Shown piece after piece: positions 7,831-42,910 of a DNA stretch of 64,000 nucleotides. Every line of letters starts with the position of its first letter. The first letter of the stretch is position 1. The stretch covers positions 48,201 through 112,200 of the forward strand of contig JADHUV010000004.1 in assembly GCA_016784355.1 (NCBI GenBank), in the 5' to 3' direction. This DNA is from Nitrospira sp. GTDB taxonomy: Bacteria; Nitrospirota; Thermodesulfovibrionia; UBA6902. The translations under genes and the position numbers were made by a program. A model generated the notes under the pieces. It was not told the DNA's origin, searched no databases, and saw nothing but the letters and a program-made list of their open reading frames with translations.

Positions 7831-8301
7831 TTAATCCATATCTCTGATTCGTAGCCCAAGTTCCTTTTCCGCATGTTCACTGCCGTTTTCTGCGGCAACT
7901 TTCAGCCACGACAGCGCTTCCTGCTCATTAATATCAGTCCCGAGACCGAGAGAATAAATCTGATACATCATGAACTGGGCATGTGGGTGGTCTTGTTGGG
8001 CGGCCAGGCGATAAAGGTTTCGTGCTTTTTCGAAGTCTTGCGCCACATAATTGCCCATAAGATACAACTCGGCCAATAGTACATGGCCGGAGGCAATATT
8101 ATCATTGGAACTTCTTGAACACCAGTAAAATGCCTGTTCGTAATTCGGGCCCCTTGAAATATTTCCATAACTGTATTCATGACAGAAATTCTGCGTTAAA
8201 AAGCTGCTGTTCCGGATGTCCATATGTGTATTCTTCAGGCCGCATCCCGTCAGGATGAAAGCCAGCAAGGCCATACAGATAAGATATTTTTTAATATACA
8301 T
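7831..8301 (-). CDS. Sel1/TPR-repeat lipoprotein
   Basis: Lipobox LTGCG, and Sel1-like repeats of the form HAQFMMYQIY...G. Confidence 0.55.
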   Translation of the reverse strand: MYIKKYLICMALLAFILTGCGLKNTHMDIRNSSFLTQNFCHEYSYGNISRGPNYEQAFYWCSRSSNDNIASGHVLLAELYLMGNYVAQDFEKARNLYRLAAQQDHPHAQFMMYQIYSLGLGTDINEQEALSWLKVAAENGSEHAEKELGLRIRDMD

Positions 8302-8311
8302 AAATCACTCC

Positions 8312-10027
8312 TTACTTAATACATTTGCTGCTGCATTTGTATCTGTTTAATTTCCGCATCAGCGGCTTTTCCGGTTCTTTGGGAAGCATAGCACTTTGAG
8401 TACCGGGCAGTCTTACAATATGCGGCGTAATAAGCAGGACGAGTTCACTTTTCTCTTCTGATTCCTGCGTACTTGTAAATGCCGTTCCAATAACCGGAAG
8501 ATCTCCGAGAAGGGGGATTTTTCTCTCATTATTGGAGTAGGTAGTGCGGGTAAGCCCTCCCACTGCAATAGTTAAGTTATCTTTAGCAATTATAGTTCCC
8601 TGAAGCCTCGCGGTATTAATGGCATCGATTGGCAAGTTAAGAACCTTGCCTTCTGAAACCACGGGTATTATCGCTCCATTTGTTCGGACATCTGAGCTTT
8701 CCTGCTGGATATTCAGCGTAATCGTGCCATCAGCATTAATGAAGGGAATTATCTCGATAGTATTGCCTATTTCCTGTACTGACGTTTCAGGTACGATATT
8801 CTCACTATTGTCACTGATGATATTACCGTTTATGTCTACATTGGTGTTATTGCTCACACTGTTGTATCCTGTCACCAGAACGCGCTCATCTCCGACAAAA
8901 AGGCGCGCCGGACGGTTGTTCGATGCCAATATCATTGGGGACGAAAGTATGTTCACTCGGTTCTGCTGTTCCATCAGTTCCATATTGGCCCGCAGCCTGC
9001 CGTTCAGATACTCAAAGACAAAGGTGCCGGCGCCGGGCAGCGCATTATTACCGAGCAGGGCGGGAATGGTGCTTTCGGAAAAAGCCCCTCCTTCAATCTC
9101 ATAGTTAAATATTGAAGTAAAGTCATCATCTACCAGTACGTTGATGATGCGCATCTCCAGGAGTACCTGAGGAACGGGCCTGTCCAGCCCCTTTATCAGT
9201 TCTTGTATGCTTTTTAACGCAAGCTTGTCACTGGAGCGTACAATAATAAGGTTGTGCTCGAAGTTCGCGGTCAGATAAACAGGCGCTTCCTGCGCTGTAA
9301 GCGCCTGCAGCTGATCAGCTGATATCTGATTATAGCCGCCCCCGGTAGGTGTCAGCGCGGCAATCTGGTCAATGCTTAGTTCTCCCTTCACCTTCCCGGC
9401 CTGTCCGGTACTGTTTGAGTTGCTATTCGATGAATTATTCCCGGAGGAATTAAAGAAACTGTTGTTGGTTACGCTGTTAAAATCATCATTTCTTTTTTCA
9501 GCGGAAATTCCCGCGAACCCTGCACTCCCCGGACTGCCGCTGCCGCCTGACTGCCTGCGCGTCACACGGTCCCCGTAGAGGTCTTCAATTGCATTTGCAA
9601 CCAGTTCCACATTCGGGTTGCTGAGTGTGAATATTTTAGTCTCGTCGTCATGGTGTACTATCAGGTCTTTACGGTACTCTTCGGTAGTCATGATGCGATA
9701 GGTAGCGGTATCACCGTCCTGCCGGTACCAGAGATTATTAATACGGCATATAGTTTCAATGACGTGCTTAACAGAAACGTCTTTAAGGTAGATAGTCACG
9801 GTTGTTTCAGCTGCCGATGAAGTAGCAACAATATTGGCGCCGGACATTTCAGAAATAACACGTATAACGTCAATAAGACGGGCGTCTCTGTATTCCAGTT
9901 CACTGATAATCATGCCGGAGATAACATCCGGTCCAGCCGCCCCGCTCCAGGTCCCGGCAAAAGCTGAAACAGGTAGCATCGCTGCAATTAAAATAAAAAC
10001 AATATATCGCATAATATTATCTGACAA
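8312..10027 (-). CDS. gspD: Secretin (GspD/PilQ family) outer-membrane channel
   Basis: C-terminal secretin motif GGLTRTT...IPLLGDLPVIG...LLITPHIV. Signal peptide present. An internal Asn/Ser-rich low-complexity stretch is also present. Confidence 0.85.
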   Translation of the reverse strand: MSDNIMRYIVFILIAAMLPVSAFAGTWSGAAGPDVISGMIISELEYRDARLIDVIRVISEMSGANIVATSSAAETTVTIYLKDVSVKHVIETICRINNLWYRQDGDTATYRIMTTEEYRKDLIVHHDDETKIFTLSNPNVELVANAIEDLYGDRVTRRQSGGSGSPGSAGFAGISAEKRNDDFNSVTNNSFFNSSGNNSSNSNSNSTGQAGKVKGELSIDQIAALTPTGGGYNQISADQLQALTAQEAPVYLTANFEHNLIIVRSSDKLALKSIQELIKGLDRPVPQVLLEMRIINVLVDDDFTSIFNYEIEGGAFSESTIPALLGNNALPGAGTFVFEYLNGRLRANMELMEQQNRVNILSSPMILASNNRPARLFVGDERVLVTGYNSVSNNTNVDINGNIISDNSENIVPETSVQEIGNTIEIIPFINADGTITLNIQQESSDVRTNGAIIPVVSEGKVLNLPIDAINTARLQGTIIAKDNLTIAVGGLTRTTYSNNERKIPLLGDLPVIGTAFTSTQESEEKSELVLLITPHIVRLPGTQSAMLPKEPEKPLMRKLNRYKCSSKCIK

Positions 10028-10592
10028 TGATCATACCCCCCAATGTTCCAACCTCCACAACGATACTCAGTCTGTCCATTTTCTGAATTTTTATTACTTC
10101 CTCGGGGCCGGCAGGGCTGATGCTTATCTGATCTCCGGCCCGGACCATATAGACGCCGCTGCCAGCTACTTCCAACAGAGCAATCGAGTCGTCAGGCGTG
10201 TCTTTGTAGGTGATACCCCTTAGTGTAAGTTTCGGGATACGCACTGTTTCTGGAGCTGCTCTGAATAGAGGGGCACTGCCATAAGCAATAGCAGTCTCCA
10301 TTTCCGGCGTAACGGTAAAAGGGTCCCTTACCTCCCGGTTATAGGGTTTGTGAGTGTCAGTGATGGGCGCGCGGGTATCATCATTAGCGCCCTGTTTGCG
10401 CATATATTTCTCCAGTTCCCCGTAGTGGTCATTCATAGTATTCATCAGAGTAGGCAGTTTTTCCATCAATGCCCTGCCCGGGTCGCTCTCCTCGGCATAG
10501 GCATTTATATGAAACAGGGACACAATAATAATTCCTGACACTAAAAAACATGCTGCACGATATTTTCTGTAATAATTTAATCTCATTTTCAT
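10017..10592 (-). CDS. Pilus/secretion-system accessory protein, GspC/PilP-like
   Basis: Signal-anchored 191-aa protein lying between gspF and the secretin. Confidence 0.35.
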   Translation of the reverse strand: MKMRLNYYRKYRAACFLVSGIIIVSLFHINAYAEESDPGRALMEKLPTLMNTMNDHYGELEKYMRKQGANDDTRAPITDTHKPYNREVRDPFTVTPEMETAIAYGSAPLFRAAPETVRIPKLTLRGITYKDTPDDSIALLEVAGSGVYMVRAGDQISISPAGPEEVIKIQKMDRLSIVVEVGTLGGMIIVR

Positions 10593-11806
10593 CCTCCTGA
10601 AATGGCAAAAACAGCGCTAAAAAACGCGATATATACAAAACCGACCATGCCCCCTATGAGCAGGATGGCCACAGGCTCCATTAACGCCGCCAGGACTTTG
10701 CTTTTGACCTGAAGAGCATTTTCAAAATAGTTTCCGGCTTCATCCATAATCTGGTCCAGACTTCCCGAGCTTTCTCCTACAGAAGCCATTTGCTGAATCA
10801 ATGGACTAATATGGGCATGCCGGAAACTCTCTTCGAGTGTGCCGCCGCGCGATATGTTTGAGCCGGCAGAAATAATTGAATCAGAGACAACGCGGTTTCC
10901 TACAAGGTCTTTTACAATGCCGAGTGATTCTACGATTGTAAGGCCGCTTCTCAGCAGTACAGACAGTCCCCAGCAAAGTTGAGACATGCAGGAAAGGTGA
11001 ACGACATGCCCGAACACCGGTATCATAAGAATGATGCGGTCGATGGCCCGGCGCGGCCCCGGTTTTTGATAGGAATAGACAATAGCGGCACAGGTCATCA
11101 TGAAAACTATCATCAATAAAATGCCCCAGGACTGAGCAAAATCACTTACATCAATTAATGCCTGTGTCATGGGGGGTACTACATTTCCGCGCCGTTGAAT
11201 GAATTCTGCAAACTTCGGGATTACCCCGACAGCAAGAAAAATAAACAGCCCGATAGCGAACAGCAGTGTAATGGAAGGATAAAGCATGGTGACTATTGTC
11301 TGACGCTTAAGTTCAGCCTTACGTTCCATATGGCCGGCAATACGTTCGGCGATAATATCCAGTTCGCCGGATGCTTCCGCACTGCGGACCATATGACACA
11401 CAATCCCCGGAAATACAGAGGGGTGCGCGCCCAGTGCCTGCGAGAAACGGTTCCCTCTTGTGACCTGTCTAAGGATGTCTTTCACAATGCTTTTCATGCG
11501 TCCCGTCATCAGGCGTTCGATTGACCGTAAACTTTCTGCCAGTGGCATACCGGAACGCAGCAGCACGGATAACTGGCGGAAAAAGAATATTTTACGCATT
11601 ACTGTTACAGGCATGAGATCTGACAACATATTGCGCACATCATTATTCTTTTCAATTGCAGCAGGGTCATCATCTGTATTTATCGATGTTACAAAAACGT
11701 CCCTGGATTTCAGTTGTGCTCTTGCGGAGCGCATATCAGGGGCTTGAATAATACCTTTAATCTCTTCACCATTTTCTCTTAGCGCTGTGTAGCGGAAACC
11801 CGTCAT
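10589..11806 (-). CDS. gspF: Type II secretion / type IV pilus platform protein (GspF/PilC)
   Basis: 405 aa with three transmembrane segments and two repeated GspF domains. Confidence 0.85.
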   Translation of the reverse strand: MTGFRYTALRENGEEIKGIIQAPDMRSARAQLKSRDVFVTSINTDDDPAAIEKNNDVRNMLSDLMPVTVMRKIFFFRQLSVLLRSGMPLAESLRSIERLMTGRMKSIVKDILRQVTRGNRFSQALGAHPSVFPGIVCHMVRSAEASGELDIIAERIAGHMERKAELKRQTIVTMLYPSITLLFAIGLFIFLAVGVIPKFAEFIQRRGNVVPPMTQALIDVSDFAQSWGILLMIVFMMTCAAIVYSYQKPGPRRAIDRIILMIPVFGHVVHLSCMSQLCWGLSVLLRSGLTIVESLGIVKDLVGNRVVSDSIISAGSNISRGGTLEESFRHAHISPLIQQMASVGESSGSLDQIMDEAGNYFENALQVKSKVLAALMEPVAILLIGGMVGFVYIAFFSAVFAISGG

Positions 11807-13458
11807 GCAACCTCCTTGTCCGGGCTGGCGGCAGCATTACAGAGACCGAGCTTTTTCAACTCTTCCATAGAAGTAATCCCCTTTAAGACTTTATCGCGGC
11901 CGTCGTCTGCAAGCCTGAGATGGGCGGTCGCGTGTTCGGTTATCTCACTTTCACTTGCAGCTCGCTGAATCAGATGACCTGTCTTTTCATCAAGCCATAA
12001 TGTCTCATACAATGCTGTTCGTCCCTTATATCCCGTACCCATGCAATGTGCACACCCCCGCGGCCTGAAGATGATAGTTGCAGCATCCTCCTGCAGAGAC
12101 ATACCAATGTTTTCTTCTGCAGATGCTGCTATAGGCTCTTTGCACAGGGAGCAGAGACAACGTACCAGACGCTGGGCAATCACGCATAAGAGTGTAGAAC
12201 CTATGAGATAACGTTCTACTCCCAGGTCAGCTAACCGTCCTATGGCAGAAACAGCGTCATTCGTGTGAAGTGTAGAAAACACGAGGTGTCCGGTCATGGC
12301 AGACTTAACGGCAATATCCGCTGTTTCATTGTCACGTATTTCCCCGACCATGATAACGTCAGGATCATGGCGCAGGAACCCTCTGAGAGCGGATGCAAAG
12401 GATACTTTAGTGCTGATCTGCACCTGGGCTATGCCTTCCATTGCATATTCTACAGGGTCTTCTACTGTAAGAATATTAATGTCTTCACGGGCAATCTCCC
12501 TCAGTGCCGCGTAAAGGGTCGTGGACTTTCCGCTGCCTGTCGGGCCAGTAAGCAGTACCATGCCGTGGGACTTTTCTATAGCTTTCCGAAAATGGTGAAG
12601 AGTACCTTCTCCCATGCCGATATTGTCCAGTGTTAATTTTTCAGTTTCCGAACCAAGAATCCTGAGTGTGGCACGCTCTCCAAAGCGGGTAGGCATGGTT
12701 GCAGCGCGAATATCGAACTCCCTGGCGGTTTTTATGTTGAATGTAAAACTACCGTCCTGTGGATAACGCTGTTCTGAAATATCCATATGGGCCAGCACTT
12801 TCATGCGGCTGATAAGTGCCTGTCCTTCTTCTGTCCTGTATTCAAAAGGATATTGCTTCAGATGGCCGTCTATTCTCAAGCGGACCTGAAACAGGTCCTG
12901 CCGCGGCTCCAGATGGATGTCGGAAGCGCGATGCAGATATGCCTCTTTTAATATCCGATCCAGAACATCTACAGGATCAAATGCTTCACTGCCAAACTGT
13001 ATGTCTGACTGTGCAAATGGTTTACTTACGGCTTTTGACAATGCATAGCGCAGTTCCTCAGGATTGGTCAGAACAATTTCCACAGGACTGTTCAACGCGC
13101 GCTTGGCCTGTTCAATACCGGAATGGTCTTCCGGGTCAGTGATGGCAAGAAATATAACATGATCATGTTTTATCCCCTGAACAATGGGGACAATAAGCCG
13201 TTTTTGTACCAGATAGGTCGGCATTGATTTTAAAGCCTTCATGTCAATATTCAGTCCTTTCCCGGTGACATAATCCATGTTATGAAGCTCCGCATAAGCC
13301 CGGTAAATCGAAGACACCGGAACCCTGTGCATTATACTCAGTGACTCCAGAAGGTCCTGGCGCAGTCTCCTGGCCTCTTTCTTCACGATCATCATCTGCT
13401 CCGGTGTGACCAGCCCCTGCTGTATTGCCGCATTTATTAGTGATGATGTCTTGATCAT
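11803..13458 (-). CDS. gspE: Secretion/assembly ATPase of the GspE/PilB/MshE type
   Basis: N-terminal MshE/GspE-N domain, Walker A GPTGSGKST, and a tetracysteine motif CxxC...CxxC. Confidence 0.9.
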   Translation of the reverse strand: MIKTSSLINAAIQQGLVTPEQMMIVKKEARRLRQDLLESLSIMHRVPVSSIYRAYAELHNMDYVTGKGLNIDMKALKSMPTYLVQKRLIVPIVQGIKHDHVIFLAITDPEDHSGIEQAKRALNSPVEIVLTNPEELRYALSKAVSKPFAQSDIQFGSEAFDPVDVLDRILKEAYLHRASDIHLEPRQDLFQVRLRIDGHLKQYPFEYRTEEGQALISRMKVLAHMDISEQRYPQDGSFTFNIKTAREFDIRAATMPTRFGERATLRILGSETEKLTLDNIGMGEGTLHHFRKAIEKSHGMVLLTGPTGSGKSTTLYAALREIAREDINILTVEDPVEYAMEGIAQVQISTKVSFASALRGFLRHDPDVIMVGEIRDNETADIAVKSAMTGHLVFSTLHTNDAVSAIGRLADLGVERYLIGSTLLCVIAQRLVRCLCSLCKEPIAASAEENIGMSLQEDAATIIFRPRGCAHCMGTGYKGRTALYETLWLDEKTGHLIQRAASESEITEHATAHLRLADDGRDKVLKGITSMEELKKLGLCNAAASPDKEVA

Positions 13459-14573
13459 AATTGTCCCGTTCCGCTTAATCTCTGCTGCGTTTCCTGTCTC
13501 AGGCCGTAGAGAATCTCCCTAAAGTGATCAGAGTTATGCGCCAGCCTGGAGGCTGTGTCTTCTGATATCATCCTCTCTCTGACCCGTTCTGCCAGCGCAT
13601 GGTCCAGTAACTGATTGCCCCGGGCACGCCCCGACTGCATTATCGAACGTATCTGTTCAGGTTTGTGGTTGCGGATCAGATTGGCAACGGCATTGTCCAC
13701 AATTAATATCTCATTGACAGGGACACGCCCCCTGCCGTCAACGGTTTTTACAAGCATCTGCGTTACAACGGCCCGCAGCACTCTCGACAGCTGCTGGCGA
13801 ACGCCAGTCTGTTCATTACCGGGGAAGGCGCCGACAAGACGGTCTATGACACCGACAGCATCATTTGTATGCAATGTGGAGAATACCAGGTGCCCTGTTT
13901 CAGCCGCCTGCAAAGCGGCATGCATGGTAGGAACATCACGCATTTCACCAAGCAGGATAACATCCGGGTCTTCACGTAATGCCGCACGGATCGCATGTGC
14001 ATAAGATGGTACATCATTGCCGATTTCTCGCTGGTGAATCATGGCTTTTTTGTTGCAGTGCACGAATTCGACAGGGTCCTCTATCGTAATTATATGACAG
14101 TATCGTCTGTTGTTGATCTCATTGATAATGCTTGCCAATGAAGTGGATTTACCACTCCCGGTTGTCCCTGTAAACAGTATCAGCCCGTCTTTCAGTTCAG
14201 CCAGTTCATAAAGCTGTGGAGGAAGTTTAAGTGACTCTATGCTTGCCGATACATCTTCCAGTCTTCTTATGGCCAGGGCTTTTGTACCATGTTGATGATA
14301 AATATTTATACGGAACCGTATGTTCTTTACTGATGTATAACCGGTATCAATCGTACGCTGCTCTTCAAGGATCTTCTTTCTCCTGCTGTCAAGGAGCTTT
14401 TCAGTAATCCCGTTGATTACTTCATGGTCAACAGGCAGTGTTGATGTGTCAGGGCGCAATTCGCCGTTGACGCGGTATGCGGGATGGCTGCCTTCGGACA
14501 AATGGAGGTCCGATGCCCCCAGCTGGCAGCAGACCAAAAGATAATGCTCTAATATGTCAGGTCTTTCTTTCAT
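13455..14573 (-). CDS. pilT: PilT/PilU-family retraction-type ATPase
   Basis: 372 aa. ASDLHL, GTTGSGKST, TIEDPVEF and AETGHLVFSTLHTN are all present. Confidence 0.85.
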   Translation of the reverse strand: MKERPDILEHYLLVCCQLGASDLHLSEGSHPAYRVNGELRPDTSTLPVDHEVINGITEKLLDSRRKKILEEQRTIDTGYTSVKNIRFRINIYHQHGTKALAIRRLEDVSASIESLKLPPQLYELAELKDGLILFTGTTGSGKSTSLASIINEINNRRYCHIITIEDPVEFVHCNKKAMIHQREIGNDVPSYAHAIRAALREDPDVILLGEMRDVPTMHAALQAAETGHLVFSTLHTNDAVGVIDRLVGAFPGNEQTGVRQQLSRVLRAVVTQMLVKTVDGRGRVPVNEILIVDNAVANLIRNHKPEQIRSIMQSGRARGNQLLDHALAERVRERMISEDTASRLAHNSDHFREILYGLRQETQQRLSGTGQL

Positions 14574-14574
14574 G

Positions 14575-15195
14575 TTATAAACTCACTGTCAGCATTGCTT
14601 CAATGTATCTGCTGGTGCCGGACGGAGTTGCTTTAACAGCCTGTATCTGCAAACGCATAATCACGGCATTAAAGGGCAATACCGCCAGCTGTCGTATGAA
14701 TTCGTTGACACTGATAAAAGCTCCTTGCAGTTTCAGGTCAAACAGTGGACGTTCATGTACGATTTGATTCCCGGCTTTCTTTGTCCCGGTGAGACTGTCT
14801 ATACGGAGCGAAGAGCGGTTTATTTGCAGTACCTTCATATTGTTCTTTTCTGCAAGTATGGTAATTTCACCTTTAGCATTTGCAAGGGCGTCACTGCTGA
14901 GAAGGTCAATTAAACCTTTTGAAAACCCTTCAAGCAGACGGTCAGTCTCTTCAATGCCCCGGGTCAGTTCGGCAATTTCTTTTTCCATGGCCTCCATGTT
15001 CTGAGCGCCGGTGCGGATCGGTCGCAGGCTGTTGCGCTCCTTCATTGTCTCCGCCAGTATCTCATTCATGCGCTTTCCCTCCGACTGCATCGACTTGACC
15101 CTTAACGTCAGATAACCGGCAGCCAAAATAGCAATTACAAGAAACAGGAGTAATGCCCTCTCCCGGGCATTTATTTTCTTCCACCATTGTGTCAT
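14575..15195 (-). CDS. GspM/PilO-like inner-membrane assembly protein
   Basis: One N-terminal transmembrane segment and a coiled coil, in the position following the GspL-like gene. Confidence 0.5.
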   Translation of the reverse strand: MTQWWKKINARERALLLFLVIAILAAGYLTLRVKSMQSEGKRMNEILAETMKERNSLRPIRTGAQNMEAMEKEIAELTRGIEETDRLLEGFSKGLIDLLSSDALANAKGEITILAEKNNMKVLQINRSSLRIDSLTGTKKAGNQIVHERPLFDLKLQGAFISVNEFIRQLAVLPFNAVIMRLQIQAVKATPSGTSRYIEAMLTVSL

Positions 15196-16901
15196 GATTT
15201 CCGCTCCATCAGAATGAAGGAAAACTCATAACCTTCCGCATCCTTCCATCCGCGGCCTGCAGCGCTTGGACTTTCGCTTATGTACAGGTTCCACTCCGCA
15301 ATATTGCGCGACAGGGACTGGTGGAACATATCAATATGGCGCTGCTCCAATGCCCAACCCTTTATGTGAAAGAGAAACCACTCCTGCTCGTCTATACTTT
15401 CGAGCACAACACCATCCGGGATGCTTCCGGTTATTGCCTCAAGAAAACCGGTCATCACCTGCTGCCTGTGCATAAATACTCTTTCAACTGCATCTTTCCG
15501 ATGTTTCAGACTGGTATTTTTGTCTTCCATTGCATCCCGTTTAGCAACAAGTTTTTGATATTCAGCGCTTTTATTAGACATTTTTTCATTTGCGCGCGCA
15601 ATTGTCCTGACCTCACCCTGCAGCGTTTCCGTCTCTGCCATTATTTTCCCCATAGATCTACTATGAGATATTTCGTAGAAACCAATAAATACAAGCAGAC
15701 ATGCCGTTGCAATATTAAGCCAGGCCATGGGCCGCTTATGCATGGCCGGCAGAGGAGGTTCTCCTGGAAGAAAGGGCGCAAGAAGATGAGATGACATACC
15801 CAGATAATGGCGCGAGCTCCCCAACAACGCATACCATGACTCTTTTTGAGACAACAGGGTACAGTCAAATTCTCCATTCAGTGAGAGGGGAAGCACTTTT
15901 CTATTCATCCGCTGCGCAAGGGCCGTCCCTAGATATTCTTTGTTAGGGTGTGATCCGGTAATGACCATTGCCTCCATATCCGCGGTAAGAACGGGACGGC
16001 ATAGTTCTGCAAGATCCTCCTCGCTAACAGAAATATTACAGGTCCTTCTATAGGCGCTTTGTGTGATCTCACCCTGTTCAATACTGGATACAGTAATATG
16101 TCCCTGCTCTATTTCCACCAGGCATTGTGCAGCAGGGGAGAGGGGCAGAAGTGCCGCGCTGGTCAATGCTTCAGGATATATTCTTTCCAGCCGAATTTCG
16201 CTGTTTCTCAGCGCCTGAAGCCATTCCCTCCCGATAGTTTCGTGTATTGCGCAGCATAATGTAAGCCCCGGCTGACTGCCTGCGGTTGTCGTGCTGTCTG
16301 ACCAGCCGCAATTCAGAGAATCTTCCAGGAGATGGAGCCGTTCCTGAATAGCAAGGCAATCTTCCAGCTGCTCACGATCAATAAAACCTTTTTCTATTGC
16401 TATTTCTCCAAAACGGGCAGGCAGCGTACCCCCGTGTCTTCCTGCGTAGCTTTCTTGCTTATCAAGCGTATCCAGTATTTGATCACGCTGAATGGCATCT
16501 ATATGTCCACGGGCTATCATTACCCAGCCGATATTGGGAGGAAGGGCAAGATCCTGTGTAAGCTCGTCCATTTCCCACCGGACCAGTTCTTCAATCTGTC
16601 CGGGAGCAATCTTCTTCCCCTGCGGAACGGGCAGTTTCAGCAGGGCAGGAACTGCGCCGGCACATACAAGCACAGCTTCTTTCGGTAAGGAAAGCCCTGC
16701 CTGTTTAAGTTGGCTCATTACCTGTTCAAGCGCCTGCCGGGCGACTACAGACCGGGTTTCTGCTGTCCCTTCAACCCGGAGAGATTCACCTTTTTTGGTT
16801 ATTATCATTGCCTTCAGGCCGAAGCCGTTTGCTTCAAGCGCCAATAACCGTTTTTTTTTTCTTTTTGTTAGCAGAGAGACGTGTTTAAGTATATTTTTCA
16901 T
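15192..16901 (-). CDS. gspL: GspL-like protein, a PilM-type cytoplasmic domain fused to a PilN-type TM/periplasmic domain
   Basis: 569 aa with a central transmembrane segment and a coiled coil after it. Codons 14-17 contain an A10 tract. Confidence 0.6.
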   Translation of the reverse strand: MKNILKHVSLLTKRKKKRLLALEANGFGLKAMIITKKGESLRVEGTAETRSVVARQALEQVMSQLKQAGLSLPKEAVLVCAGAVPALLKLPVPQGKKIAPGQIEELVRWEMDELTQDLALPPNIGWVMIARGHIDAIQRDQILDTLDKQESYAGRHGGTLPARFGEIAIEKGFIDREQLEDCLAIQERLHLLEDSLNCGWSDSTTTAGSQPGLTLCCAIHETIGREWLQALRNSEIRLERIYPEALTSAALLPLSPAAQCLVEIEQGHITVSSIEQGEITQSAYRRTCNISVSEEDLAELCRPVLTADMEAMVITGSHPNKEYLGTALAQRMNRKVLPLSLNGEFDCTLLSQKESWYALLGSSRHYLGMSSHLLAPFLPGEPPLPAMHKRPMAWLNIATACLLVFIGFYEISHSRSMGKIMAETETLQGEVRTIARANEKMSNKSAEYQKLVAKRDAMEDKNTSLKHRKDAVERVFMHRQQVMTGFLEAITGSIPDGVVLESIDEQEWFLFHIKGWALEQRHIDMFHQSLSRNIAEWNLYISESPSAAGRGWKDAEGYEFSFILMERKS

Positions 16902-17947
16902 TAATCTATCTCCAGTACTAGTGACGGCGGCGACATTCCGGGAAATATATTGAATTTTAAATATATATTTTTTCCTGTAGCGTCATAAACAACGTTTCCA
17001 TCCGTAGGCGTAACTCCAATTACTTTATCATTGTCAATCAAAACAAGAAGATAGGTGCCAAAAGGAATACGCTCACCTGCTGGAATGGTAATCTCAGCTG
17101 AATCAGTTACCTTATGCGTCATAAGGATATTACTTTTAGGCCCCACAGCGATGGGTTTCTGGTCAGCACTGCGATAGGTAACAGGCCATTCAGATTGCCC
17201 CCCGCTCGTAGTATTTTTATATACAAAAAGTGCAATAAAGTAGCCATTAGTATTAGTGATAATGGATGAGCCTTTATTGTTAAGTGTAATATTGATCTGA
17301 TTTACACCGATACTCCAATCATCGGGATATATATCTGCCGAGCGGTCGGGAAAAGTAGGAGTTATAGTTGATGCTGGTTGCAGGGAGATCTGATATTCGA
17401 TGGCCCCTGCCGGATCAGTAACAGTAAAATATCCTCCCCATGCGTCACGCAGTTCAGGAGTTGAGTCAAGTAGCGTCACAAGAGAAAGTGGGCGGCGGAA
17501 GCCCTTAAACATTGTCAGTTCTTTACTGTTCCCGCCGGCAACAGCCACTTTAACTGATTTATAAACGGTCGCTTCTGCGTAACGATAGTAAGGCTCTTTT
17601 TCGCCGTAGGGCTGCTGTACAGTGGTGCCATCAACTGCCCTATGCAGGGGCCAAAGAGGATATGGTGAAGATATCTCAGGCAATTTCCCATTATCAGCGA
17701 CATATCCTGAAAGGAGCGGTTGTTCTCCATCATATGTTATACGTATAACTGATTTATATATTTGATAAAGTTTCTGTACCGAAGCATCATAACGCTGCTG
17801 GTTGTCATTATTTTCAACAAAAACCATGGAAATGCTCGCCAGCACACCGAGAAGGAAAAGGACCAGCACCATTTCCAGCAGAGTAAATCCCCTCATTCCA
17901 CTAATATTATTTATACCGTTTGTCATGTTAGTTCCTAGAATATACAA
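16901..17947 (-). CDS. Large pseudopilin/minor pilin with a prepilin N-terminus
   Basis: GFTLLEMVLVLFLLGVL class-III signal, and cleavage motif G/FTLLE. Confidence 0.75.
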   Translation of the reverse strand: MYILGTNMTNGINNISGMRGFTLLEMVLVLFLLGVLASISMVFVENNDNQQRYDASVQKLYQIYKSVIRITYDGEQPLLSGYVADNGKLPEISSPYPLWPLHRAVDGTTVQQPYGEKEPYYRYAEATVYKSVKVAVAGGNSKELTMFKGFRRPLSLVTLLDSTPELRDAWGGYFTVTDPAGAIEYQISLQPASTITPTFPDRSADIYPDDWSIGVNQINITLNNKGSSIITNTNGYFIALFVYKNTTSGGQSEWPVTYRSADQKPIAVGPKSNILMTHKVTDSAEITIPAGERIPFGTYLLVLIDNDKVIGVTPTDGNVVYDATGKNIYLKFNIFPGMSPPSLVLEID

Positions 17948-18666
17948 AGCACAAGATCATCATTAGTGCCGGTTACAGTATATTTATTGCTGCATGCAGT
18001 TATGACTCCACTCTGGTAAATCCCGTCTTCACCCATGCTTACGATACGCGCCAGGCTGGTGTTGTTGAGATCAAAAAACAGATAGGGTCTGCCGTAACGG
18101 CTGATTGGCTGATCAGTACTTGCCTGTCCAACGAGACGCCAGTCAAACAAGCATGCGCTATTAGCAGCCACTTCTGAACAGGGAGTATCCAGGTTTGGCC
18201 TGATTTCCCCATTATTAACGGGTGCATAGGCAAAGGGATCTGGAATTGCCCGCTGCAATGTAACGGCTGTCGTGTCAATTACATAAGGAAGTCCGCTGCC
18301 GTCAAGCTTGAGATTGTCTCCTATATCTACCCGCCCGCTGTCCCCTCCGCTTAAATATGGGCCCCGCCATCCGGTTTTATAATCAACTCTCCAACTGACA
18401 AGCGTTCCCTGCTCAAAGAGAAATGAGATATCAGCTGCCGAATTCTGAACTGGAAATATTTGATTGTCCTGACGGAAACGGAGAAGGGTTTGCCGTATCT
18501 GCTCCATCTCAAAGCGCGCCGCTTCTATTTTAGCGGTATCTCCGATTCTGGAGGCAGGCGACCAGATAATCGCCCCTGCTATTACCGCCAGTATGGCGAC
18601 TACGACAACCAGTTCGAGTAATGTAAATCCCGACTGATTAATATTTTTAGTTATAGAATGTACCAT
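17935..18666 (-). CDS. Pseudopilin/minor pilin
   Basis: N-terminal hydrophobic pilin helix with motif GFTLLELVVVVAILAV. Confidence 0.75.
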   Translation of the reverse strand: MVHSITKNINQSGFTLLELVVVVAILAVIAGAIIWSPASRIGDTAKIEAARFEMEQIRQTLLRFRQDNQIFPVQNSAADISFLFEQGTLVSWRVDYKTGWRGPYLSGGDSGRVDIGDNLKLDGSGLPYVIDTTAVTLQRAIPDPFAYAPVNNGEIRPNLDTPCSEVAANSACLFDWRLVGQASTDQPISRYGRPYLFFDLNNTSLARIVSMGEDGIYQSGVITACSNKYTVTGTNDDLVLCIF

Positions 18667-18748
18667 TTAATTATGGACCGCAGGATTCATAAGGTAAGAC
18701 ACGGGGCAGCATTAATGCTGCCCCTGTATCTTTTATCAGATAAATACC

Positions 18749-19735
18749 TTAGCTTTTCTGACCTCTGAATTCAGCGATTTCCTCATCCAGGAAGTCACCC
18801 CGGGCATCAAGTATTGCCTGGACAATACCGCCTTGTGTGATATTGATAAGCGCTACGTAGTGAGCGTACTTATCCTTGCCAACCTGTCCGTAGAAAGGTG
18901 CCTTGGAAAATGGCGAGTTGGCCTTGCCAACAAGGTCTGAAGCCTGTCCAATTCCAACTCCAACGAGTACATCATTGACAGCTGCACCGACCTTCTTGTT
19001 GTTGTAACCATCGGTTCCGGCATTCCATACCATTGCAGGAGCGCCTGCAAGAAGAGGGGCTGAGAATCCGCGACCACGATTTTCCCATGATGTAGCTGTG
19101 TCTGGGCGTGGATCTTCAAATGCGTGGTTCATGATGTCCGATTTAACAAGCAGACCGGCCCCCAGAGCTGCATTGGTACCGCCGATTACTGTAGGAGTTG
19201 CATCGACTGAGGTTGCATCATTGTCACATGCTGCAGTAACTGCATAACGTAGAGTCGTAATGCCTGAATTGCTTAAATCAGTGGCCTCTGCAGCAGTCAA
19301 TGCCCTGAGAGTGAACTTCCCTGCGAGCTTGGAACCAAGGCCGCCGCCAATACCGGATACATCTGACTGTCCGCCAAATTTATAGGCTGCTGTTACTGTG
19401 GCGCTGTCCGGCGTTGCAGTGTTATTGATTGTCAGAGATGAATATAAAATTTCATCATAGGCGGGATTATAAGGCAAACAAGCCAGAGATTCCATTTCAG
19501 ACGGAAGACGGCCCTCTGTTGCCTGATAAATCTGAAGGGCATCCTGCACCCCTGCCAGTGTCTGTGTTGCCACGCCACGGGCAGCAGTCGTATCTTGACT
19601 TCCGAATGATGATATCATCGCTCCTCCAATGATGGCCATCACCGTGACGACTACAAGCAGCTCAAGCAAGGTGAAACCGTCCTCGCCCTTTGTATGATTA
19701 AGAACTTTTTTTGATTTGTTTAGAAGGTTACTCAT
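18749..19735 (-). CDS. Long type IV pilin-like protein, probably the major pilin or a pseudopilin
   Basis: GFTLLELLVVVTVMAIIG prepilin motif. 328 aa. First gene of the cluster. Confidence 0.75.
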   Translation of the reverse strand: MSNLLNKSKKVLNHTKGEDGFTLLELLVVVTVMAIIGGAMISSFGSQDTTAARGVATQTLAGVQDALQIYQATEGRLPSEMESLACLPYNPAYDEILYSSLTINNTATPDSATVTAAYKFGGQSDVSGIGGGLGSKLAGKFTLRALTAAEATDLSNSGITTLRYAVTAACDNDATSVDATPTVIGGTNAALGAGLLVKSDIMNHAFEDPRPDTATSWENRGRGFSAPLLAGAPAMVWNAGTDGYNNKKVGAAVNDVLVGVGIGQASDLVGKANSPFSKAPFYGQVGKDKYAHYVALINITQGGIVQAILDARGDFLDEEIAEFRGQKS

Positions 19736-22685: not shown

Positions 22686-23309
22686 ATGCCCCATTTACTT
22701 GAAATATATTCCGATTATATATGACCCTGGTGCTACTTCATTACCGGGCGTATTGAACGACTGAATAAGGAATATGAACTTGATGTCCGCTGGAGAGCAT
22801 TTCCTCTGCATACTGAAACACCTGAGGCGGGGACTCTTTTGAAAGATCTCTTCTCTAACTTCAGTAGCGATGACCTGATGAATATGAAACGCCGCATGAA
22901 AGAAGCAGCGGCTGAAGCTGGTTTGCCTTTTGGTGATCGGGATCGGACTTTTAACAGTCGCCTTGCACAGGAATTGGGCAAATGGGCTGAAAGAAATAAT
23001 AAGGGAGATGCATTTCAACACGCGATATTTAAGGCCTATTTTTCAGAGGGGATAAATATCGCCAAAATTCCCGCTCTTATAAATCTAGCTGCCTCAATTG
23101 GTCTGCCCCGTGAGGAAGCCGAGGTAGTACTTTTGCAAAGAACATTTAAAACAGATGTGGATGAGGATTGGTTGCTTTCGCAAAAGAACGGGATTACCGC
23201 TGTTCCCACATTTGTTATGAATAAAGAAAAATTAATCGGAGCGCAGCCATATGAGATGCTGGTAAATTTTATGGAAACGCAGGGCGTGCAGAAGAGAATT
23301 ATTTCATAA
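22686..23309 (+). CDS. DsbA/FrnE-family thiol-disulfide oxidoreductase, predicted selenoprotein with UGA-Sec at 22722-22724
   Basis: ATG at 22686 reads MPHLLEIYSDYI-[TGA]-PWCYFITGRIERL. This runs straight into the 22839..23309 ORF. The TGA sits where the first Cys of the DsbA CPWC motif is expected. A hairpin lies at 22737-22757, 12 nt downstream. Confidence 0.7.
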
Positions 23310-35934: not shown

Positions 35935-37461
35935 TTATAATGAGGACACAAAAAAACCAGCATGGTTGGATGTGAATATCGGCGGATCTCTTTTTATGAT
36001 TTCCATAACAGCCTTATTACGTTTAAATTCATTATCCAGAAACTGCCGGATCTGTTTTCTATTCCACCCTTCCGGATGAACAAAATCAGTATAGAGCGAA
36101 AGATCCCCGTCATAAAAATTCTTTGTTTCTAATTTAAAAGCATCATCTCCAACTACAGGCATATTGAAGATTGCTATATTCAGAAATGTAATTTCGTCTT
36201 TGTGCCTTATGACAAAATCCAGCGTGCTGCGTGCCTCGGGGAGTGTCTCGCCGGGAGTGCCGAAAATTAAATATACATACGTAGCTATTCCTGCATTTTT
36301 CAAAGTTTTTAAGGCAAGGGAGGCGGTTTTCAGGTCAATGCCTTTATGCATTTTATTGAGTACTTGCTGATCACCCGACTCGAGTCCAAGCTTAAGCATT
36401 ACACATCCTGAATTTTTCAGAGCCCTGCAGAAGTCGGGATCAGTCAGGTCACGATTAATTCTGGCAAACCCGTACCAGGGGACATCAAACGGTTGTTCCG
36501 TAATTCTTTTAAGCAGTGCGGGACTCACAGCGTTGTCCAGTAAATGAATAAGCACAGGTTTTGTTTTTTGGACAAGCGAACGGATGTCTTCCATTACCTT
36601 ATTAAGAGGCGTTGGAATATAAGGGCTTTCCTCTGCTTTCTCCGGGCAGAAAGAACACTTGTTCCAATAGCAGCCTGTCGAGGCATTGTATGGGAGGATG
36701 AAACCAGGGGCAAGGTAATCGCTCAGGGGCAGTGAATTATAATCAGGAGCATAGTGGTTTTCTTTAATTGCAGAAACACCCATAATATCCAGCAGTTGCT
36801 GCTCTCCCGGACCAGAGATAAGTGTATAAAACAGCCCTGAGAAAGGATTATGCCAATCGGGATTACTCATCCAGGAAGTGACGAGACCCCCGCCGATTAT
36901 GACCTTTGCATGCGGTAGAAGGTTTTTAATATAACCGATCATAGCGAATGTGCATAACGCCTGGCTTAAATAATTTAATGAAAACCCGATGACAGACGGC
37001 TCTTTCTGTTGGATTAGCTGCGTAAGGCGTCTACTGAAATATTCATAAAATATACTGCATTCGGGATTGTCGGCAGCCCTGATAAGATCACGGCTTCTCA
37101 AAGGAGAAAGCTCTGAATCACGGTAGTTTGCGAGGCCTAATGTCGCGATGTTATCTGTTGATTTTTCGAGTATACGGTTAAGGTCAGCGATAGCTCGCCC
37201 GTATCGGTCAATATTTGTGTATAATCTATTTCCTCTTAGAGCTTCAAGATTGGCTGCCTGGTTCTTCAGCGCCCGTGCTGTCCATTTATCCGACGGCTCG
37301 ACGGCTATGTCCTTAGTTTTATCCAGAGTATAGAGAAGTGCCTCAATATTGGCGTCCAGCAATGTGTGTTCTATCCCGTGCGCTGTTAGTGCTCCTGAGA
37401 GTTTGGCAATACCTGCCGGGGGCTCACATGGTTTAGCGACGGGCGGATGAATGAGTAACAT
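35935..37461 (-). CDS. B12-binding-domain radical SAM enzyme (class B)
   Basis: N-terminal Rossmann-like B12-binding region, then the Cys cluster GCYWNKCSFC. Confidence 0.65.
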   Translation of the reverse strand: MLLIHPPVAKPCEPPAGIAKLSGALTAHGIEHTLLDANIEALLYTLDKTKDIAVEPSDKWTARALKNQAANLEALRGNRLYTNIDRYGRAIADLNRILEKSTDNIATLGLANYRDSELSPLRSRDLIRAADNPECSIFYEYFSRRLTQLIQQKEPSVIGFSLNYLSQALCTFAMIGYIKNLLPHAKVIIGGGLVTSWMSNPDWHNPFSGLFYTLISGPGEQQLLDIMGVSAIKENHYAPDYNSLPLSDYLAPGFILPYNASTGCYWNKCSFCPEKAEESPYIPTPLNKVMEDIRSLVQKTKPVLIHLLDNAVSPALLKRITEQPFDVPWYGFARINRDLTDPDFCRALKNSGCVMLKLGLESGDQQVLNKMHKGIDLKTASLALKTLKNAGIATYVYLIFGTPGETLPEARSTLDFVIRHKDEITFLNIAIFNMPVVGDDAFKLETKNFYDGDLSLYTDFVHPEGWNRKQIRQFLDNEFKRNKAVMEIIKRDPPIFTSNHAGFFVSSL

Positions 37462-38255: not shown

Positions 38256-38402
38256 GCTGAGTTAATATGCAAGTGCATATTGCCGCCATTACCTATTTTT
38301 TTAAAGTCTATCCCACTCCCTTCGAAGTGCGTAGACCTGACACTCCCGATTTTTATGATATAATGTAGAACAATCATATTATTAATACGAGGTACTTATA
38401 AC

Positions 38403-39002
38403 ATGAATTATTTTTTTAAATCTGGCGATATCCGTAACTACAGCATCATATTGTTCTTGATCCTATTGACAGCATTTGCCGGTCCGGCCGATGCCGGGGA
38501 GAAAGGTTCGGAAATGGCAGCGAATCATCCCTGGATAGGAAAAAAGGCCCCTCTTTTTGAACTGAAAACAATAGAGGGAAGGCATGTATCACTTTCTGAT
38601 TATCTTGGTAAAAAGAATGTAGTCCTGCACTTTGCGGCTACATGGTGACCTTTCTGTCGTGCGGAGGCTCCGCATCTGGAAGCACTTTTTAATGAAGGGC
38701 ATGCTGACCTTGCAGTATTTGTTGTAGACGTTAAAGAGGATAAGGATCATGTAGCAAAGTGGGGAAAGAAGATGGGCTATACACTTCCGATCCTTATGGA
38801 TACCGATGGGAAGGTAACAGCATCTTTTGCCCCGCCGGAAGTCCTGCCTGATATGCCTCGTGATGAGGTAGTGATCGCGGCAAATATTATTATTGACCGC
38901 CATGGTGTTATACAGTTCTTCGATCTGCTGGATTCCAGGAATTTTGATTCCAAACTGCTGAAGCTTCAAAGCCGGTTAAAGATGCTTCGGGCCGCAGAGT
39001 AA
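38403..39002 (+). CDS. Periplasmic TlpA/ResA-like thioredoxin-fold oxidoreductase, predicted selenoprotein with UGA-Sec at 38646-38648
   Basis: Signal peptide present. Reads ...VVLHFAATW-[TGA]-PFCRAEAPHL and runs in frame into the 38772..39002 ORF. The TGA sits where the first Cys of WCxxC is expected. A hairpin lies at 38660-38674, 11 nt downstream. Confidence 0.7.
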
Positions 39003-39010
39003 GTTTTACA

Positions 39011-39505
39011 ATGCAAATGCTCAAGATATGCCTGATTATCCTTTCGGTTATTTTCATGGCTGCATGTGAAGGTGAAACCCCGAAATCCGCTGTTGATAGT
39101 CCTAATGTTACGGTTGAGAATCCAGCACGTATAGATATTGCTCCGGGGGAGTCTGCCGAGGTTGTGGTAGCGATTACAGTTGCTTCAGAATATCATGTGC
39201 AGGCCAACCCTTCTGCTGACGAGTTTCTTATCCCTCTTACAATTGTTTTTGATGAACATGACGGACTGCATATTGGTAAACCGGTATATCCCCCGCCGGA
39301 GAGGCACCATTTCGAGTGGAGTCCGATCGAGCTTTTTACATACTCCGGCAAGGTTCTTCTGCCATTTCAGCTTAGTGTTGATGAATCAATAACAGCTGGA
39401 GATCGGTTGCTAACAGGAACACTTCGTTATCAGGCGTGCTCCTACTTTATCTGTCGACCGCCGAAGCAGGCAGATGTTCGGCTTGCGGTACGTATTGTTC
39501 AGTGA
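39011..39505 (+). CDS. DsbD N-terminal (alpha-domain)-like lipoprotein
   Basis: Lipobox FMAACEG, and the C-terminal Cys pair in RYQACSYFICRPP that is typical of DsbD-alpha. Confidence 0.55.
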   Translation: MQMLKICLIILSVIFMAACEGETPKSAVDSPNVTVENPARIDIAPGESAEVVVAITVASEYHVQANPSADEFLIPLTIVFDEHDGLHIGKPVYPPPERHHFEWSPIELFTYSGKVLLPFQLSVDESITAGDRLLTGTLRYQACSYFICRPPKQADVRLAVRIVQ

Positions 39506-40706: not shown

Positions 40707-41342
40707 CTACTCTTCCAGCATCACAAGCGCAGACATCATAGCTACCGCCCATACAATATCTGAAAGTGCAATCTGTAAATCACAGGTCGAGTCAAGAAAG
40801 AGATCTACGCGGGGCGGGTACTCTTCATCAGCAACCCATAAGAGGAGTGTCACGGGGACTCTTGGAAGCGGGTATAATTTTATTGCAGCATCACCAAGAC
40901 CTTCAACCTTCTCTGCCCCGAACTTTTGACCTTGACAGACAAACCCTTTGGGATCATTAGCAAATCTTTCGGCTAGCTTATCAAGAGGAAGTATATGAGT
41001 TCCTTTTGAAAACCTGTGACCGCCTTTTACATCTGTGGGCTTGATTAACTGGCCTGAAAGGGCTATGTCTTTGGATGTCGCAAAATAGCAGAGAACAGAG
41101 AGGCGGTAAAAATCTTTGAATTTTCCAAGAAACAATTCGCCTTCTTTGTGATGGCACTCAATCTTTCTGTCGCAGGGGAAAACCTGAAACTCAGTACCGA
41201 AACATTTGATGGCATATGCACCAGTGGATTTATCAAAGATTGAGCTGGTTCGCTTACTCACATCCGCGGAATCGAGCTCGCAGATATCATCCCAGGATTT
41301 TTCTTCGCCGTAGATGGTTTTGATGGGTACGAGTTCTTCCAT
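40707..41342 (-). CDS. Hypothetical protein, possibly DUF3786-like
   Basis: 211-aa ORF. The family assignment is from memory only. Confidence 0.3.
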   Translation of the reverse strand: MEELVPIKTIYGEEKSWDDICELDSADVSKRTSSIFDKSTGAYAIKCFGTEFQVFPCDRKIECHHKEGELFLGKFKDFYRLSVLCYFATSKDIALSGQLIKPTDVKGGHRFSKGTHILPLDKLAERFANDPKGFVCQGQKFGAEKVEGLGDAAIKLYPLPRVPVTLLLWVADEEYPPRVDLFLDSTCDLQIALSDIVWAVAMMSALVMLEE

Positions 41343-41392: not shown

Positions 41393-42910
41393 TTATTTTC
41401 GCATTATCCGGTAGTAAATAATCCTGCATAAAACGGCCGGATTTCTTTTGAAGGCATCCAACATTCTAAAGAGGATAACTGTAGGCCGTTTGAGAAATGT
41501 TTTCAAATAATAATTTCTGCTCAGCGATAAAACTAGAGATTGCAATTCACTTACCGTCCAGTTCCTGGATTTTAATGATGGCCTGTCATAGGTAATATTG
41601 GTGAGGTCAAATTCTCTTATAAACAGGTTTTTATCTTCAGCCTGTTTCCACAAACGGGTTCCGGGAAGAGGCGTAGCGTAATTGAAGCCCGCTATCTGAA
41701 GATTACATTTAAGCGCAAACCTGAAAGTATCTTTTACGTCTTCCAGAGTCTCATCAGGAAAGCCTATTATGAAAAATCCGGCAAGGGTGATTTTGTATTG
41801 TGAAATAAGGCGGCAAATTTCCAGTATCTTTTCCAGTTTCACCGGTTTTCCAATAACCTTCGTTATAACACGCTGGTTTCCGCTTTCAATGGCGGCAATA
41901 ACATAATGGCATCCGGATTCACTCATTGCCTTGATTCGCTCTTCATCCAGTGACCAGAGTGCTATCCCATTGGGCATCGACCAATGTAAGTTCATTCCTT
42001 TAAGCTTGTCACAAATATCCAGGGTTCTTTGTTTGTTGAATGTAAAATTATCATCCTGAACCTGAAATTCCTCTATCTTATATTCCTTTTTTAAATGCTC
42101 AAGCTCTGCAATTACATTCGCGGCAGAACGATATCTGTATTTATTGCCCCATATTTTGGTTGATGAACAAAAGGCGCATTTTGCGGTGCATCCCCTTGAG
42201 GTCATAATAGGCGTGCTTCTTGTACTCTTATAAATGCCTCCCTGAGGGGAAGAGATCTTGAAATATTTTTCCATCGGCAATAAATGACGCGCCGGAAATG
42301 CAATGTCATCTAAATTAGTGATAAACCTTTGTTTCGGTTGATGGACAATATTGTTATCGGAGTCTTTATATACAATTCCATCTATCGTCTTTAGACCATC
42401 GGTATTGTTATCATTTATAGATATTGAAAATTCTAAGATACTGTTTTCACTTTCCCCTAAAAATACAAAATCTATAGCCTTATTTGCTGCAAAGTGTTCC
42501 GGCAGGGCAGAAGGCGTTGGCCCGCCTATGATTGTATATTTTGTCCCGCATTCTTTTGCGATTTTGCATATTTCTACAGCGATATCAGAAACAGATGTAA
42601 ATAAACAGGAAACTCCGAGAACGTCGGGTTTAAAATTGTCAATTTCCTTCCTGATTTTATTTAAGCTTAAGCCATAATACTTATAATTGTTATGCTCGAA
42701 CTCGTTATCTATGCCTTCAATAACAGTATCCAATATCTTTACTTCATGGCTTTGCTTAAGCAGTACTGCCGATATATAAGCCAGTCCGAGCGGAACAACG
42801 GCCTTGTTTACTTCATTGCGAAGTTTTCGGTTGGGTGGATTAATAAATAAATATTTCATTCGGAGGTTAGCTTGTAAGATGGTATTTCTACTCGTGCTTA
42901 AGCTTAGCAT
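41393..42910 (-). CDS. B12-binding-domain radical SAM enzyme (class B); start probably at the internal MKYLFINPP
   Basis: Radical SAM CxxxCxxC motif within RGCTAKCAFCSS, with an N-terminal B12-binding-like domain. Confidence 0.7.
   Translation of the reverse strand: MLSLSTSRNTILQANLRMKYLFINPPNRKLRNEVNKAVVPLGLAYISAVLLKQSHEVKILDTVIEGIDNEFEHNNYKYYGLSLNKIRKEIDNFKPDVLGVSCLFTSVSDIAVEICKIAKECGTKYTIIGGPTPSALPEHFAANKAIDFVFLGESENSILEFSISINDNNTDGLKTIDGIVYKDSDNNIVHQPKQRFITNLDDIAFPARHLLPMEKYFKISSPQGGIYKSTRSTPIMTSRGCTAKCAFCSSTKIWGNKYRYRSAANVIAELEHLKKEYKIEEFQVQDDNFTFNKQRTLDICDKLKGMNLHWSMPNGIALWSLDEERIKAMSESGCHYVIAAIESGNQRVITKVIGKPVKLEKILEICRLISQYKITLAGFFIIGFPDETLEDVKDTFRFALKCNLQIAGFNYATPLPGTRLWKQAEDKNLFIREFDLTNITYDRPSLKSRNWTVSELQSLVLSLSRNYYLKTFLKRPTVILFRMLDAFKRNPAVLCRIIYYRIMRK

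Follow-up and report, generated by a model that had tools for sequence, protein, structure and literature searches.

Does an in-frame TGA in a small redoxin gene of a Nitrospira species encode selenocysteine (Sec), and is the gene directly downstream that of a redox partner for the resulting selenoprotein? The question is raised by positions 38403-39505 of a stretch of 64,000 nucleotides (nt) from Nitrospira sp. (assembly GCA_016784355.1, contig JADHUV010000004.1, positions 48,201 to 112,200 of the forward strand); this whole stretch, with a G+C content of 44%, is what we call the window. Here a gene for a TlpA-like protein, interrupted by a TGA in its active-site motif, is followed by a gene for a protein resembling the alpha domain of DsbD. 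Our analysis indicates that the two genes likely form one operon encoding an extracytoplasmic thiol/selenol redox pair, whose first member is recoded at the UGA codon to Sec. Positions are those of the window, and the two genes with their features are on its forward strand.

The first gene (38403..39002), of the type named 'Prx-like thiol:disulfide oxidoreductase', translates into 199 residues followed by TAA, and its sole internal stop is the TGA at 38646-38648, in the context VLHFAATW-TGA-PFCRAEAPHL. A first-pass annotation, made from the letters alone, had recognized here two open reading frames (ORFs) in one frame joined by this TGA, which translation confirms: 38403..38648 and 38772..39002 share a frame, with an offset of 369 nt. 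Read as Sec, the UGA becomes U82 at the N-terminal position of a UxxC motif, and the active site reads W81-U82-P83-F84-C85 (codon of C85 at 38655-38657). For profile searches of the joined product the UGA codon was taken as Cys. The Pfam domain AhpC-TSA (PF00578) then matches residues 45-172 straight through codon 82 (E 4e-23; 82 bits against a cut-off of 26), and the weaker matches to Redoxin (3.5e-17) and Thioredoxin (9.5e-9) span the UGA as well. The closest relatives in NCBIfam and the PDB are ResA, StoA, DsbE/CcmG, and TlpA, with PDB sequence matches such as ResA (1st9, 3c71), CcmG (3k8n), and DsbE (2b1k). The NCBIfam scores all remain below their cut-offs (ResA 60.8 against 170; StoA 55.2 against 210; DsbE 45.8 against 123; TlpA 34.3 against 230), and judged by sequence the kinship to these proteins is at the level of the superfamily only.

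Among 5.8 billion proteins searched, 91 homologues were detected; most of these are about 183 amino acids (aa) long and 45-55% identical, and the usual labels are 'peroxiredoxin' or 'TlpA family protein disulfide reductase'. When 23 full-length homologues were aligned, the UGA column coincided with the first Cys of W-C-P-F-C, Cys being at least 90% conserved at this position; no genuine protein was found to end at the Trp with an independent gene following it. The idea of a TlpA-like thioredoxin with Sec in place of the first Cys of a WCxxC motif therefore holds up, both through the WCPFC of the homologues and through the Pfam, NCBIfam, and PDB matches that span the UGA. The N-terminus of the protein is probably a cleavable signal peptide of the general secretory type (residues 1-31; 38403..38495), as predicted from a direct reading of the translation by eye: K6 and R11 are followed by hydrophobic residues 14-27 and by A-D-A ahead of G32. 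The N-termini of the homologues are similarly hydrophobic in the alignment.

Orthologues that also carry the UGA were sought with a pattern for DNA encoding (A/T)-T-W-UGA-P-F-C-x-A-E, in a collection of metagenomes and in genomes sampled once per species; the genes preceding homologues of the adjacent DsbD_N-like protein were inspected as well. Seven more were found: L007 in Thermoanaerobaculia (Acidobacteriota); L008 in a Candidatus Multivoradales metagenome-assembled genome (MAG); L011 in Nitrospirae from groundwater; L018 on a metagenome contig; and L024 (a fused form), L025, and L026 in metagenomes. One pattern match, L005, was rejected as a chance hit in a GC-rich frame without redoxin similarity. 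Most Sec forms cluster in a neighbour-joining tree without bootstrap, with L007 and L011 falling outside, and we claim no single origin for them. The closest of the seven is L025, which is 72% identical to the window protein. Compared with it, the nonsynonymous differences (pN) amount to 0.19 before the UGA and 0.18 after it, with the synonymous differences (pS) at about 0.8 (saturated) on both sides, and the 41 codons from the TGA to the next ATG are conserved at the protein level. Since purifying selection is equal on both sides, the part after the UGA appears to be translated in frame.

Further evidence for recoding comes from the RNA. A hairpin of the type of a Sec insertion sequence (SECIS), GUGCGGA-GGC-UCCGCAU, is located at 38659..38675, inside the codons for R-A-E-A-P-H. 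Its core, UGCGG-AGGCU-CCGCA, which starts 11 nt past the UGA and has GG in its loop, had been noticed in the first pass; the ViennaRNA fold confirms it and lengthens the stem to 7 bp, starting 10 nt past the UGA. The bacterial SECIS (bSECIS) model allows a loop of 3-9 nt and a stem of 4-16 bp, with G in the first two loop positions, a spacing between UGA and loop of 16-37 nt, and a minimum free energy of -7.5 kcal/mol or lower (PMC13188914). The predicted hairpin fits this published model within every limit: it has a 7-bp stem, a GGC loop at 17 nt from the UGA (or 16 nt if the loop is taken as A-GGC-U, which gives the N1-G-G-N-N2 form), and a centroid energy of -9.2 kcal/mol. An Rfam scan of the whole window at the gathering threshold gave no matches, the hairpin included. 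The same 7-bp hairpin, N-UGCGGA-GGC-UCCGCA-N, is found 10 nt past the UGA in all eight Sec forms, the window gene and its seven orthologues, and all 56 stem cells are paired in them; the outer pair is A-U in five and otherwise C-G, G-C, or G·U. The earlier view that a chance stop codon is unlikely is thereby supported, the UGA standing on a near-invariant Cys and recurring together with the hairpin in seven other lineages.

The hairpin is encoded within a conserved peptide, (R/N/T/H)-A-E-A-P-(H/Q), and as a test we adopted a comparative codon analysis instead of whole-region fold stability. Among the 22 invariant degenerate residues of the eight Sec forms, a single codon is used only at the UGA column and at A-E-A-P (GCG GAG GCU CCG); the remaining 17 residues are each encoded by two to five codons. 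Five Cys forms (L019, L021, L022, L023, and L027) have the same stretch, A-E-A-P or, in L027, A-A-A-P, written in other codons and with no hairpin there. Because only the hairpin codons are frozen and the Cys forms use other codons, the hairpin is not a product of amino-acid conservation. This codon contrast between Sec and Cys forms carries more weight than covariation.

A second family with an in-frame UGA, likewise TlpA-like and with the motif WATW-U-PFCxAERSFLQ, was observed at L006, L009, L010, L013, L015, L016, and L017, with L014 as a variant. L006, L009, and L010 belong to Chloroflexi genomes and the remainder to unclassified metagenome contigs. The family has a conserved hairpin of its own, GCAGAAA-GGUCC-UUUCUGC. 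In the Chloroflexi loci L009 and L010 the open frame extends upstream into a Tpx-like thiol-peroxidase domain and may thus represent a peroxidase-reductase fusion selenoprotein.

Taking the sequence evidence together, actual insertion of Sec at codon 82 is in our view highly probable. A genome-wide reassignment of UGA is ruled out, since 13 of the 36 other well-supported genes in the window, 39011-39505 among them, end normally in TGA. The first-pass annotation had counted the TlpA-like gene as the second coincidence of a Sec codon with a Cys motif in the window; the coincidences are real, and their number is three: a DsbA-like gene, a DUF3179 gene, and the TlpA-like gene. The DsbA-like (FrnE-type) gene at 22686-23309, on the forward strand, has its TGA at 22722-22724, in the context SDYI-U-PWCY. 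Its joined product of 207 aa matches Pfam DSBA (2.6e-30) over profile positions 2-189 of 191, whereas the ORF after the TGA covers only 57-189 by itself; the hairpin predicted after its UGA misfits the standard bSECIS model, having no G in the first loop positions. The DUF3179 gene (34416-33772, reverse strand) has its TGA at 34032-34030, in the context GY-U-PLA, with a hairpin GCGGCUG-UGUA-CAGCCGC 15 nt later. Of the 120 homologues listed for it, the majority have 117-146 aa and correspond to the stretch ahead of the UGA alone; all six of the short homologues that were aligned stop at this G-Y. Cys occupies the UGA position in one full-length relative and Trp in three, perhaps because TGA was translated as Trp in gene calling. 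DsbA-like and DUF3179 proteins are both listed as selenoprotein families in a 2026 review, the DUF3179 motif usually being UxxC/T, in contrast to the UxxA found in the window. The same review reports the Sec-decoding trait for Nitrospirae. On the evidence of their sequences, the two further UGA/Cys genes would be good indirect support for an organism that uses Sec.

The second gene of the pair (39011..39505) encodes 164 aa and starts 8 nt past the TAA of the first. Its product is probably a lipoprotein, to judge from a lipobox-like M-A-A-C19 (codon of C19 at 39065-39067), and has a redox Cys pair, C143 (39437-39439) and C148 (39452-39454), within YQAC...ICRPP, RYQACSYFICRPP. The Pfam family DsbD_N (PF11412) matches residues 39-156 (E 4e-9; 36.9 bits against a cut-off of 25), and an alignment of 21 homologous sequences has YHVQANP, PVYPP, and YQxC(143)....C(148)xxP as invariant elements. 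An AlphaFold2 model of the protein reached a mean predicted local distance difference test (pLDDT) score of 86.2. The top matches of this model in a Foldseek search of the PDB were 6dps, 1l6p, 1vrs, 3pfu, and 1jpe (E about 1e-5; target TM-score 0.55-0.63), along with 1jzd; the best are structures of the DsbD N-terminal domain from E. coli and Neisseria, and ScsB (6c29) is lower in the list. Complexes of this N-terminal domain with DsbD-gamma (1vrs), DsbC (1jzd), and CcmG (1z5y) are among the matched structures. The identity to the solved structures is about 16-20% by Foldseek, and a phmmer search of the protein against PDB sequences returned nothing. The Pfam match, the model with its PDB matches, and the invariant Cys pair all speak for the DsbD-alpha-like lipoprotein with a C-terminal Cys pair that had been suggested at the outset. 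Like the alpha domain of DsbD and ScsB, it combines an immunoglobulin-like fold with a Cys pair of the form YQxC...C-x-PP; unlike full-length DsbD or ScsB, it is a stand-alone alpha domain, a lipoprotein of about 160 aa with neither the membrane beta domain nor the thioredoxin-like gamma domain. Its Cys spacing is C-x4-C, and differs from the C-x5-C of E. coli DsbD alpha.

The association of the two genes extends well beyond the window, most relatives having the DsbD-alpha-like gene either behind the TlpA-like one or fused to it. Three Cys-form homologues of the TlpA-like protein chosen regardless of context (L021, L022, and L023) all have a DsbD_N gene directly downstream, often overlapping the stop codon, and a DsbD_N gene is also adjacent in the Sec forms L011 and L018. 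Approached from the other side, the loci reached via the DsbD_N protein have a redoxin gene upstream in L025, L026, and L027. In P0074, P0079, and P0080 a single protein of 323-338 aa combines both domains as a fusion, with the DsbD_N part C-terminal, and L024 is a Sec-containing fusion of the two with 338 codons. Adjacency and fusion, as features of gene arrangement, argue strongly for a functional coupling of the two genes. Of the selenium-dependent extracytoplasmic relay envisaged in the first-pass annotation, the pairing is thus supported by genomics, while the electron flow is something that we only infer.

We propose the following mechanism. SelB and Sec-tRNA would recode the UGA at codon 82 to Sec, directed by the 7-bp hairpin with its GGC loop. 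In the presumably exported protein, U82 would be the exposed nucleophile of the UxxC motif and C85 the resolving residue, and the product of the second gene would act as a membrane-tethered, immunoglobulin-fold homologue of DsbD-alpha with C143/C148 as its redox pair. Electrons would pass between the two proteins while U82 and C148 are briefly joined by a mixed Se-S bond, by analogy with DsbD-alpha, for which solved complexes show a mixed disulfide to the exposed first Cys in the CxxC motif of thioredoxin-fold partners. A CcdA/DsbD/ScsB-type membrane transporter, with its gene at some other place, would supply the electrons, whose final acceptors would be oxidised envelope proteins or small oxidants. 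Either direction is conceivable: the TlpA-like protein may donate (gamma-like) or accept (CcmG-like). The alpha domain of DsbD passes electrons to thioredoxin-fold partners (PMC3322552), and by analogy a direct electron transfer between our two proteins appears reasonably probable.

Several results weigh against this picture. None of the three proteins scanned reached an NCBIfam cut-off, and no characterised orthologue transfers a function. There is no selA, selB, selD, or tRNA-Sec in the window or in the 10 kb past either end, so that Sec decoding by the organism has to be inferred; nor did ARAGORN find a tRNA-Sec in the window or in 27 loci, and no sel gene was present in any locus fetched. 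As for the hairpin, six of its seven stem pairs are invariant, so that covariation comes from a single pair, with a score reached by 18 of 500 shuffles, and the fold of the 71-nt region is no more stable than that of shuffled sequence (z = 0.32). As for the pairing, regular-expression and hidden Markov model searches revealed no DsbD_N gene within 8 kb in the Sec forms L007 and L008, and the count of adjacent genes is biased, several paired loci having been retrieved through the DsbD_N protein. Finally, no membrane gene of the CcdA/DsbD type adjoins the pair in any locus examined, nor was one seen among the window ORFs scanned.

The alternative that survives best concerns function: the TlpA-like protein could scavenge peroxides as a Prx- or GPx-type selenoperoxidase of the envelope, with the DsbD-alpha-like protein merely recycling it. 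An exposed selenolate reacts fast with peroxides. AhpC-TSA is the best Pfam match, 'peroxiredoxin' is a frequent database label of the homologues, and in the Chloroflexi UxxC relatives L009 and L010 the protein runs on in frame from a Tpx-like peroxidase domain. A precedent for a link to peroxide removal is also found in Caulobacter, where ScsB feeds an envelope pathway from TlpA to a peroxiredoxin (PMC3322552). We nevertheless regard a peroxidase as improbable: the motif W-U-x-x-C is of the thioredoxin type and not the T-x-x-C/U of peroxiredoxins, which is the same criterion that parts 'Prx-like' proteins from Prx (PMC1088965), and in NCBIfam and the PDB it is disulfide reductases (ResA, StoA, DsbE, and TlpA) that match best.

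It is very unlikely that the TGA is a true stop and the locus a pseudogene or a set of two small ORFs of 81 aa and 76 aa, although this is how the public annotation has it. Gene callers evidently break up the selenoprotein: its 81-aa N-terminal piece is named 'redoxin domain-containing protein' by NCBI (MBL7048340.1, MBC8412974.1), and the second piece is called as a 108-aa ORF in one assembly (L004: ORFs 51-296 and 324-650). The lack of Sec machinery in and around the window also suits a stop codon. The same split ORF calls, with an 81-aa ORF ending at the TGA, recur in four other copies of this genome's locus from four samples, which disfavours a sequencing error. Against a true stop stand the conservation of the 41 codons between TGA and ATG, with pN at 0.18 and pS saturated, alike on both sides; the Pfam domain that crosses the TGA; the preservation of UGA and hairpin in eight lineages; and the fact that the 81-aa product would stop one residue short of the catalytic motif. 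Least credible of all is a selenium-free read-through (near-cognate Trp or Cys, or a local code change) with the hairpin as a by-product of the A-E-A-P-H peptide, for although a few DUF3179 homologues have W at the UGA position, which suggests pipelines translating TGA as Trp, and although the hairpin falls in codons of conserved residues, TGA terminates 13 of 36 window genes, the peptide is written in other codons and without a hairpin in the Cys forms, synonymous sites are frozen only in the hairpin, and Trp in place of the nucleophile would abolish redox activity.

As a Sec-containing redox protein, the product of the window gene belongs, as a new and unannotated member, to a class of selenoproteins that was already recognized around 2005. 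This class, the 'Prx-like thiol:disulfide oxidoreductase' selenoproteins (PF00578, UxxC), has been described from Geobacter, Syntrophus, and Desulfotalea and from the Sargasso Sea and Global Ocean Sampling (GOS) metagenomes (PMC1088965, PMC1794560, PMC13188914). In common with it, the window protein has an AhpC-TSA/Redoxin domain with UxxC rather than TxxU, a Sec aligned to Cys, and a small hairpin with G in its loop just past the UGA. The window subfamily, placed in the class by domain and motif, differs from the family as described in being a clade with WU/CPFCxAEAPHL and an LPDLxRDEV insertion, in its link to a DsbD-alpha-like gene, and in its occurrence in Nitrospirota, Acidobacteriota, and the Multivoradales MAG. 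With TlpA, ResA, CcmG (DsbE), and StoA, which are secreted or anchored, it shares the thioredoxin fold; those proteins carry W-C-x-x-C, whereas the nucleophile of the window protein would be Sec, and there is no context of cytochrome c maturation or Sco. The motif differs as well, being xPFC in the window and EPC, PTC, or VPC in the TlpA/ResA/CcmG/StoA proteins. Some UGA-containing TlpA-like families curated at NCBI are thioredoxin-fold selenoproteins too: the WAxxUGC ResA-like family (NF041054), the TUGYCR redoxin (NF053656), and the UGC-containing TlpA family. The window protein differs from them in motif and in the position of Sec, and scores far below the cut-offs (23.3 against 300 and 19.1 against 100). 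In the literature searched we found no description of a conserved pairing or fusion of a DsbD-alpha-like protein with this selenoprotein family; the pairing and the fusion are the modestly new part of our findings.

The neighbourhoods of some relatives (L019/L020, L021, L022, L024, and L025) contain S-adenosylmethionine (SAM)-dependent methyltransferases, one with a weak MerC-like match, together with ArsR-rhodanese regulators, OsmC, and metallo-beta-lactamase-rhodanese (persulfide-dioxygenase-like) genes. The window copy of the pair is without any such neighbours. As far as gene content goes, the neighbour set of the relatives hints at a link to the handling of reactive sulfur or metalloids. 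A broader interpretation, which we put forward only tentatively and consider rather doubtful, would be that a TlpA-like protein (Cys or Sec) and a stand-alone DsbD-alpha-like protein constitute an undescribed self-contained module, gamma-like plus alpha without the membrane beta domain, that is split or fused in several phyla. One clade would have switched to Sec, with an identical hairpin across Nitrospirota, Acidobacteriota, and the Multivoradales MAG, and the module might be dedicated to dealing with reactive forms of sulfur, selenium, or metalloids in the envelope and not to reducing protein disulfides in general. Such a dedicated role is suggested because Cys-form copies recur beside the methyltransferase, ArsR-rhodanese, OsmC, and persulfide-dioxygenase-like genes.

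Upstream of the pair, GAGG at 38389-38392, 10 nt ahead of the ATG, is a candidate ribosome-binding site. A candidate for a sigma-70-like promoter, CTGACA-16 nt-TATAAT with an extended-10 TG, is located at 38337..38364, about 40 nt upstream of the start codon, and agrees with the consensus at 11 of 12 positions in a scan for consensus matches alone. The pair is flanked by two large B12-binding radical SAM proteins, both on the reverse strand (35935-37461 and 41393-42910); the latter gene adjoins a DUF3786 gene (40707-41342), and none of these neighbours has an evident link to the redox pair. Farther away, the region 51172-53581 encodes a radical SAM protein with a C-terminal DUF3641, which we take to be an arsenosugar-synthase ArsS-like architecture, followed by a 341-aa ORF without Pfam match and a small 4Fe-4S ferredoxin. 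A long cluster resembling type II secretion systems (T2SS) or type IV pili occupies 7831-19735 on the reverse strand; it comprises a secretin, T2SS-F, two T2SS-E ATPases, a T2SS-M-like protein, two prepilin-type N-methylation proteins, and several large ORFs without Pfam match, and is followed by a Sel1-repeat protein. At 54432-56377, on the forward strand, an AAA_21 (AbiEii-like ATPase) gene precedes an RloB-like gene, a pairing often regarded as a defence or toxin-antitoxin-like module.

Current understanding is not overturned by any of these results. They do show that the selenoproteome of this Nitrospirota lineage is under-annotated, two more genes in the window being truncated in the same way. 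The comparison of synonymous codons between Sec and Cys forms parts a real SECIS from a hairpin driven by amino acids, and is usable on other candidates. For the family itself, the linkage and fusion with a DsbD-alpha-like protein name a testable redox partner for selenoproteins whose function is given as 'unknown' in reviews.

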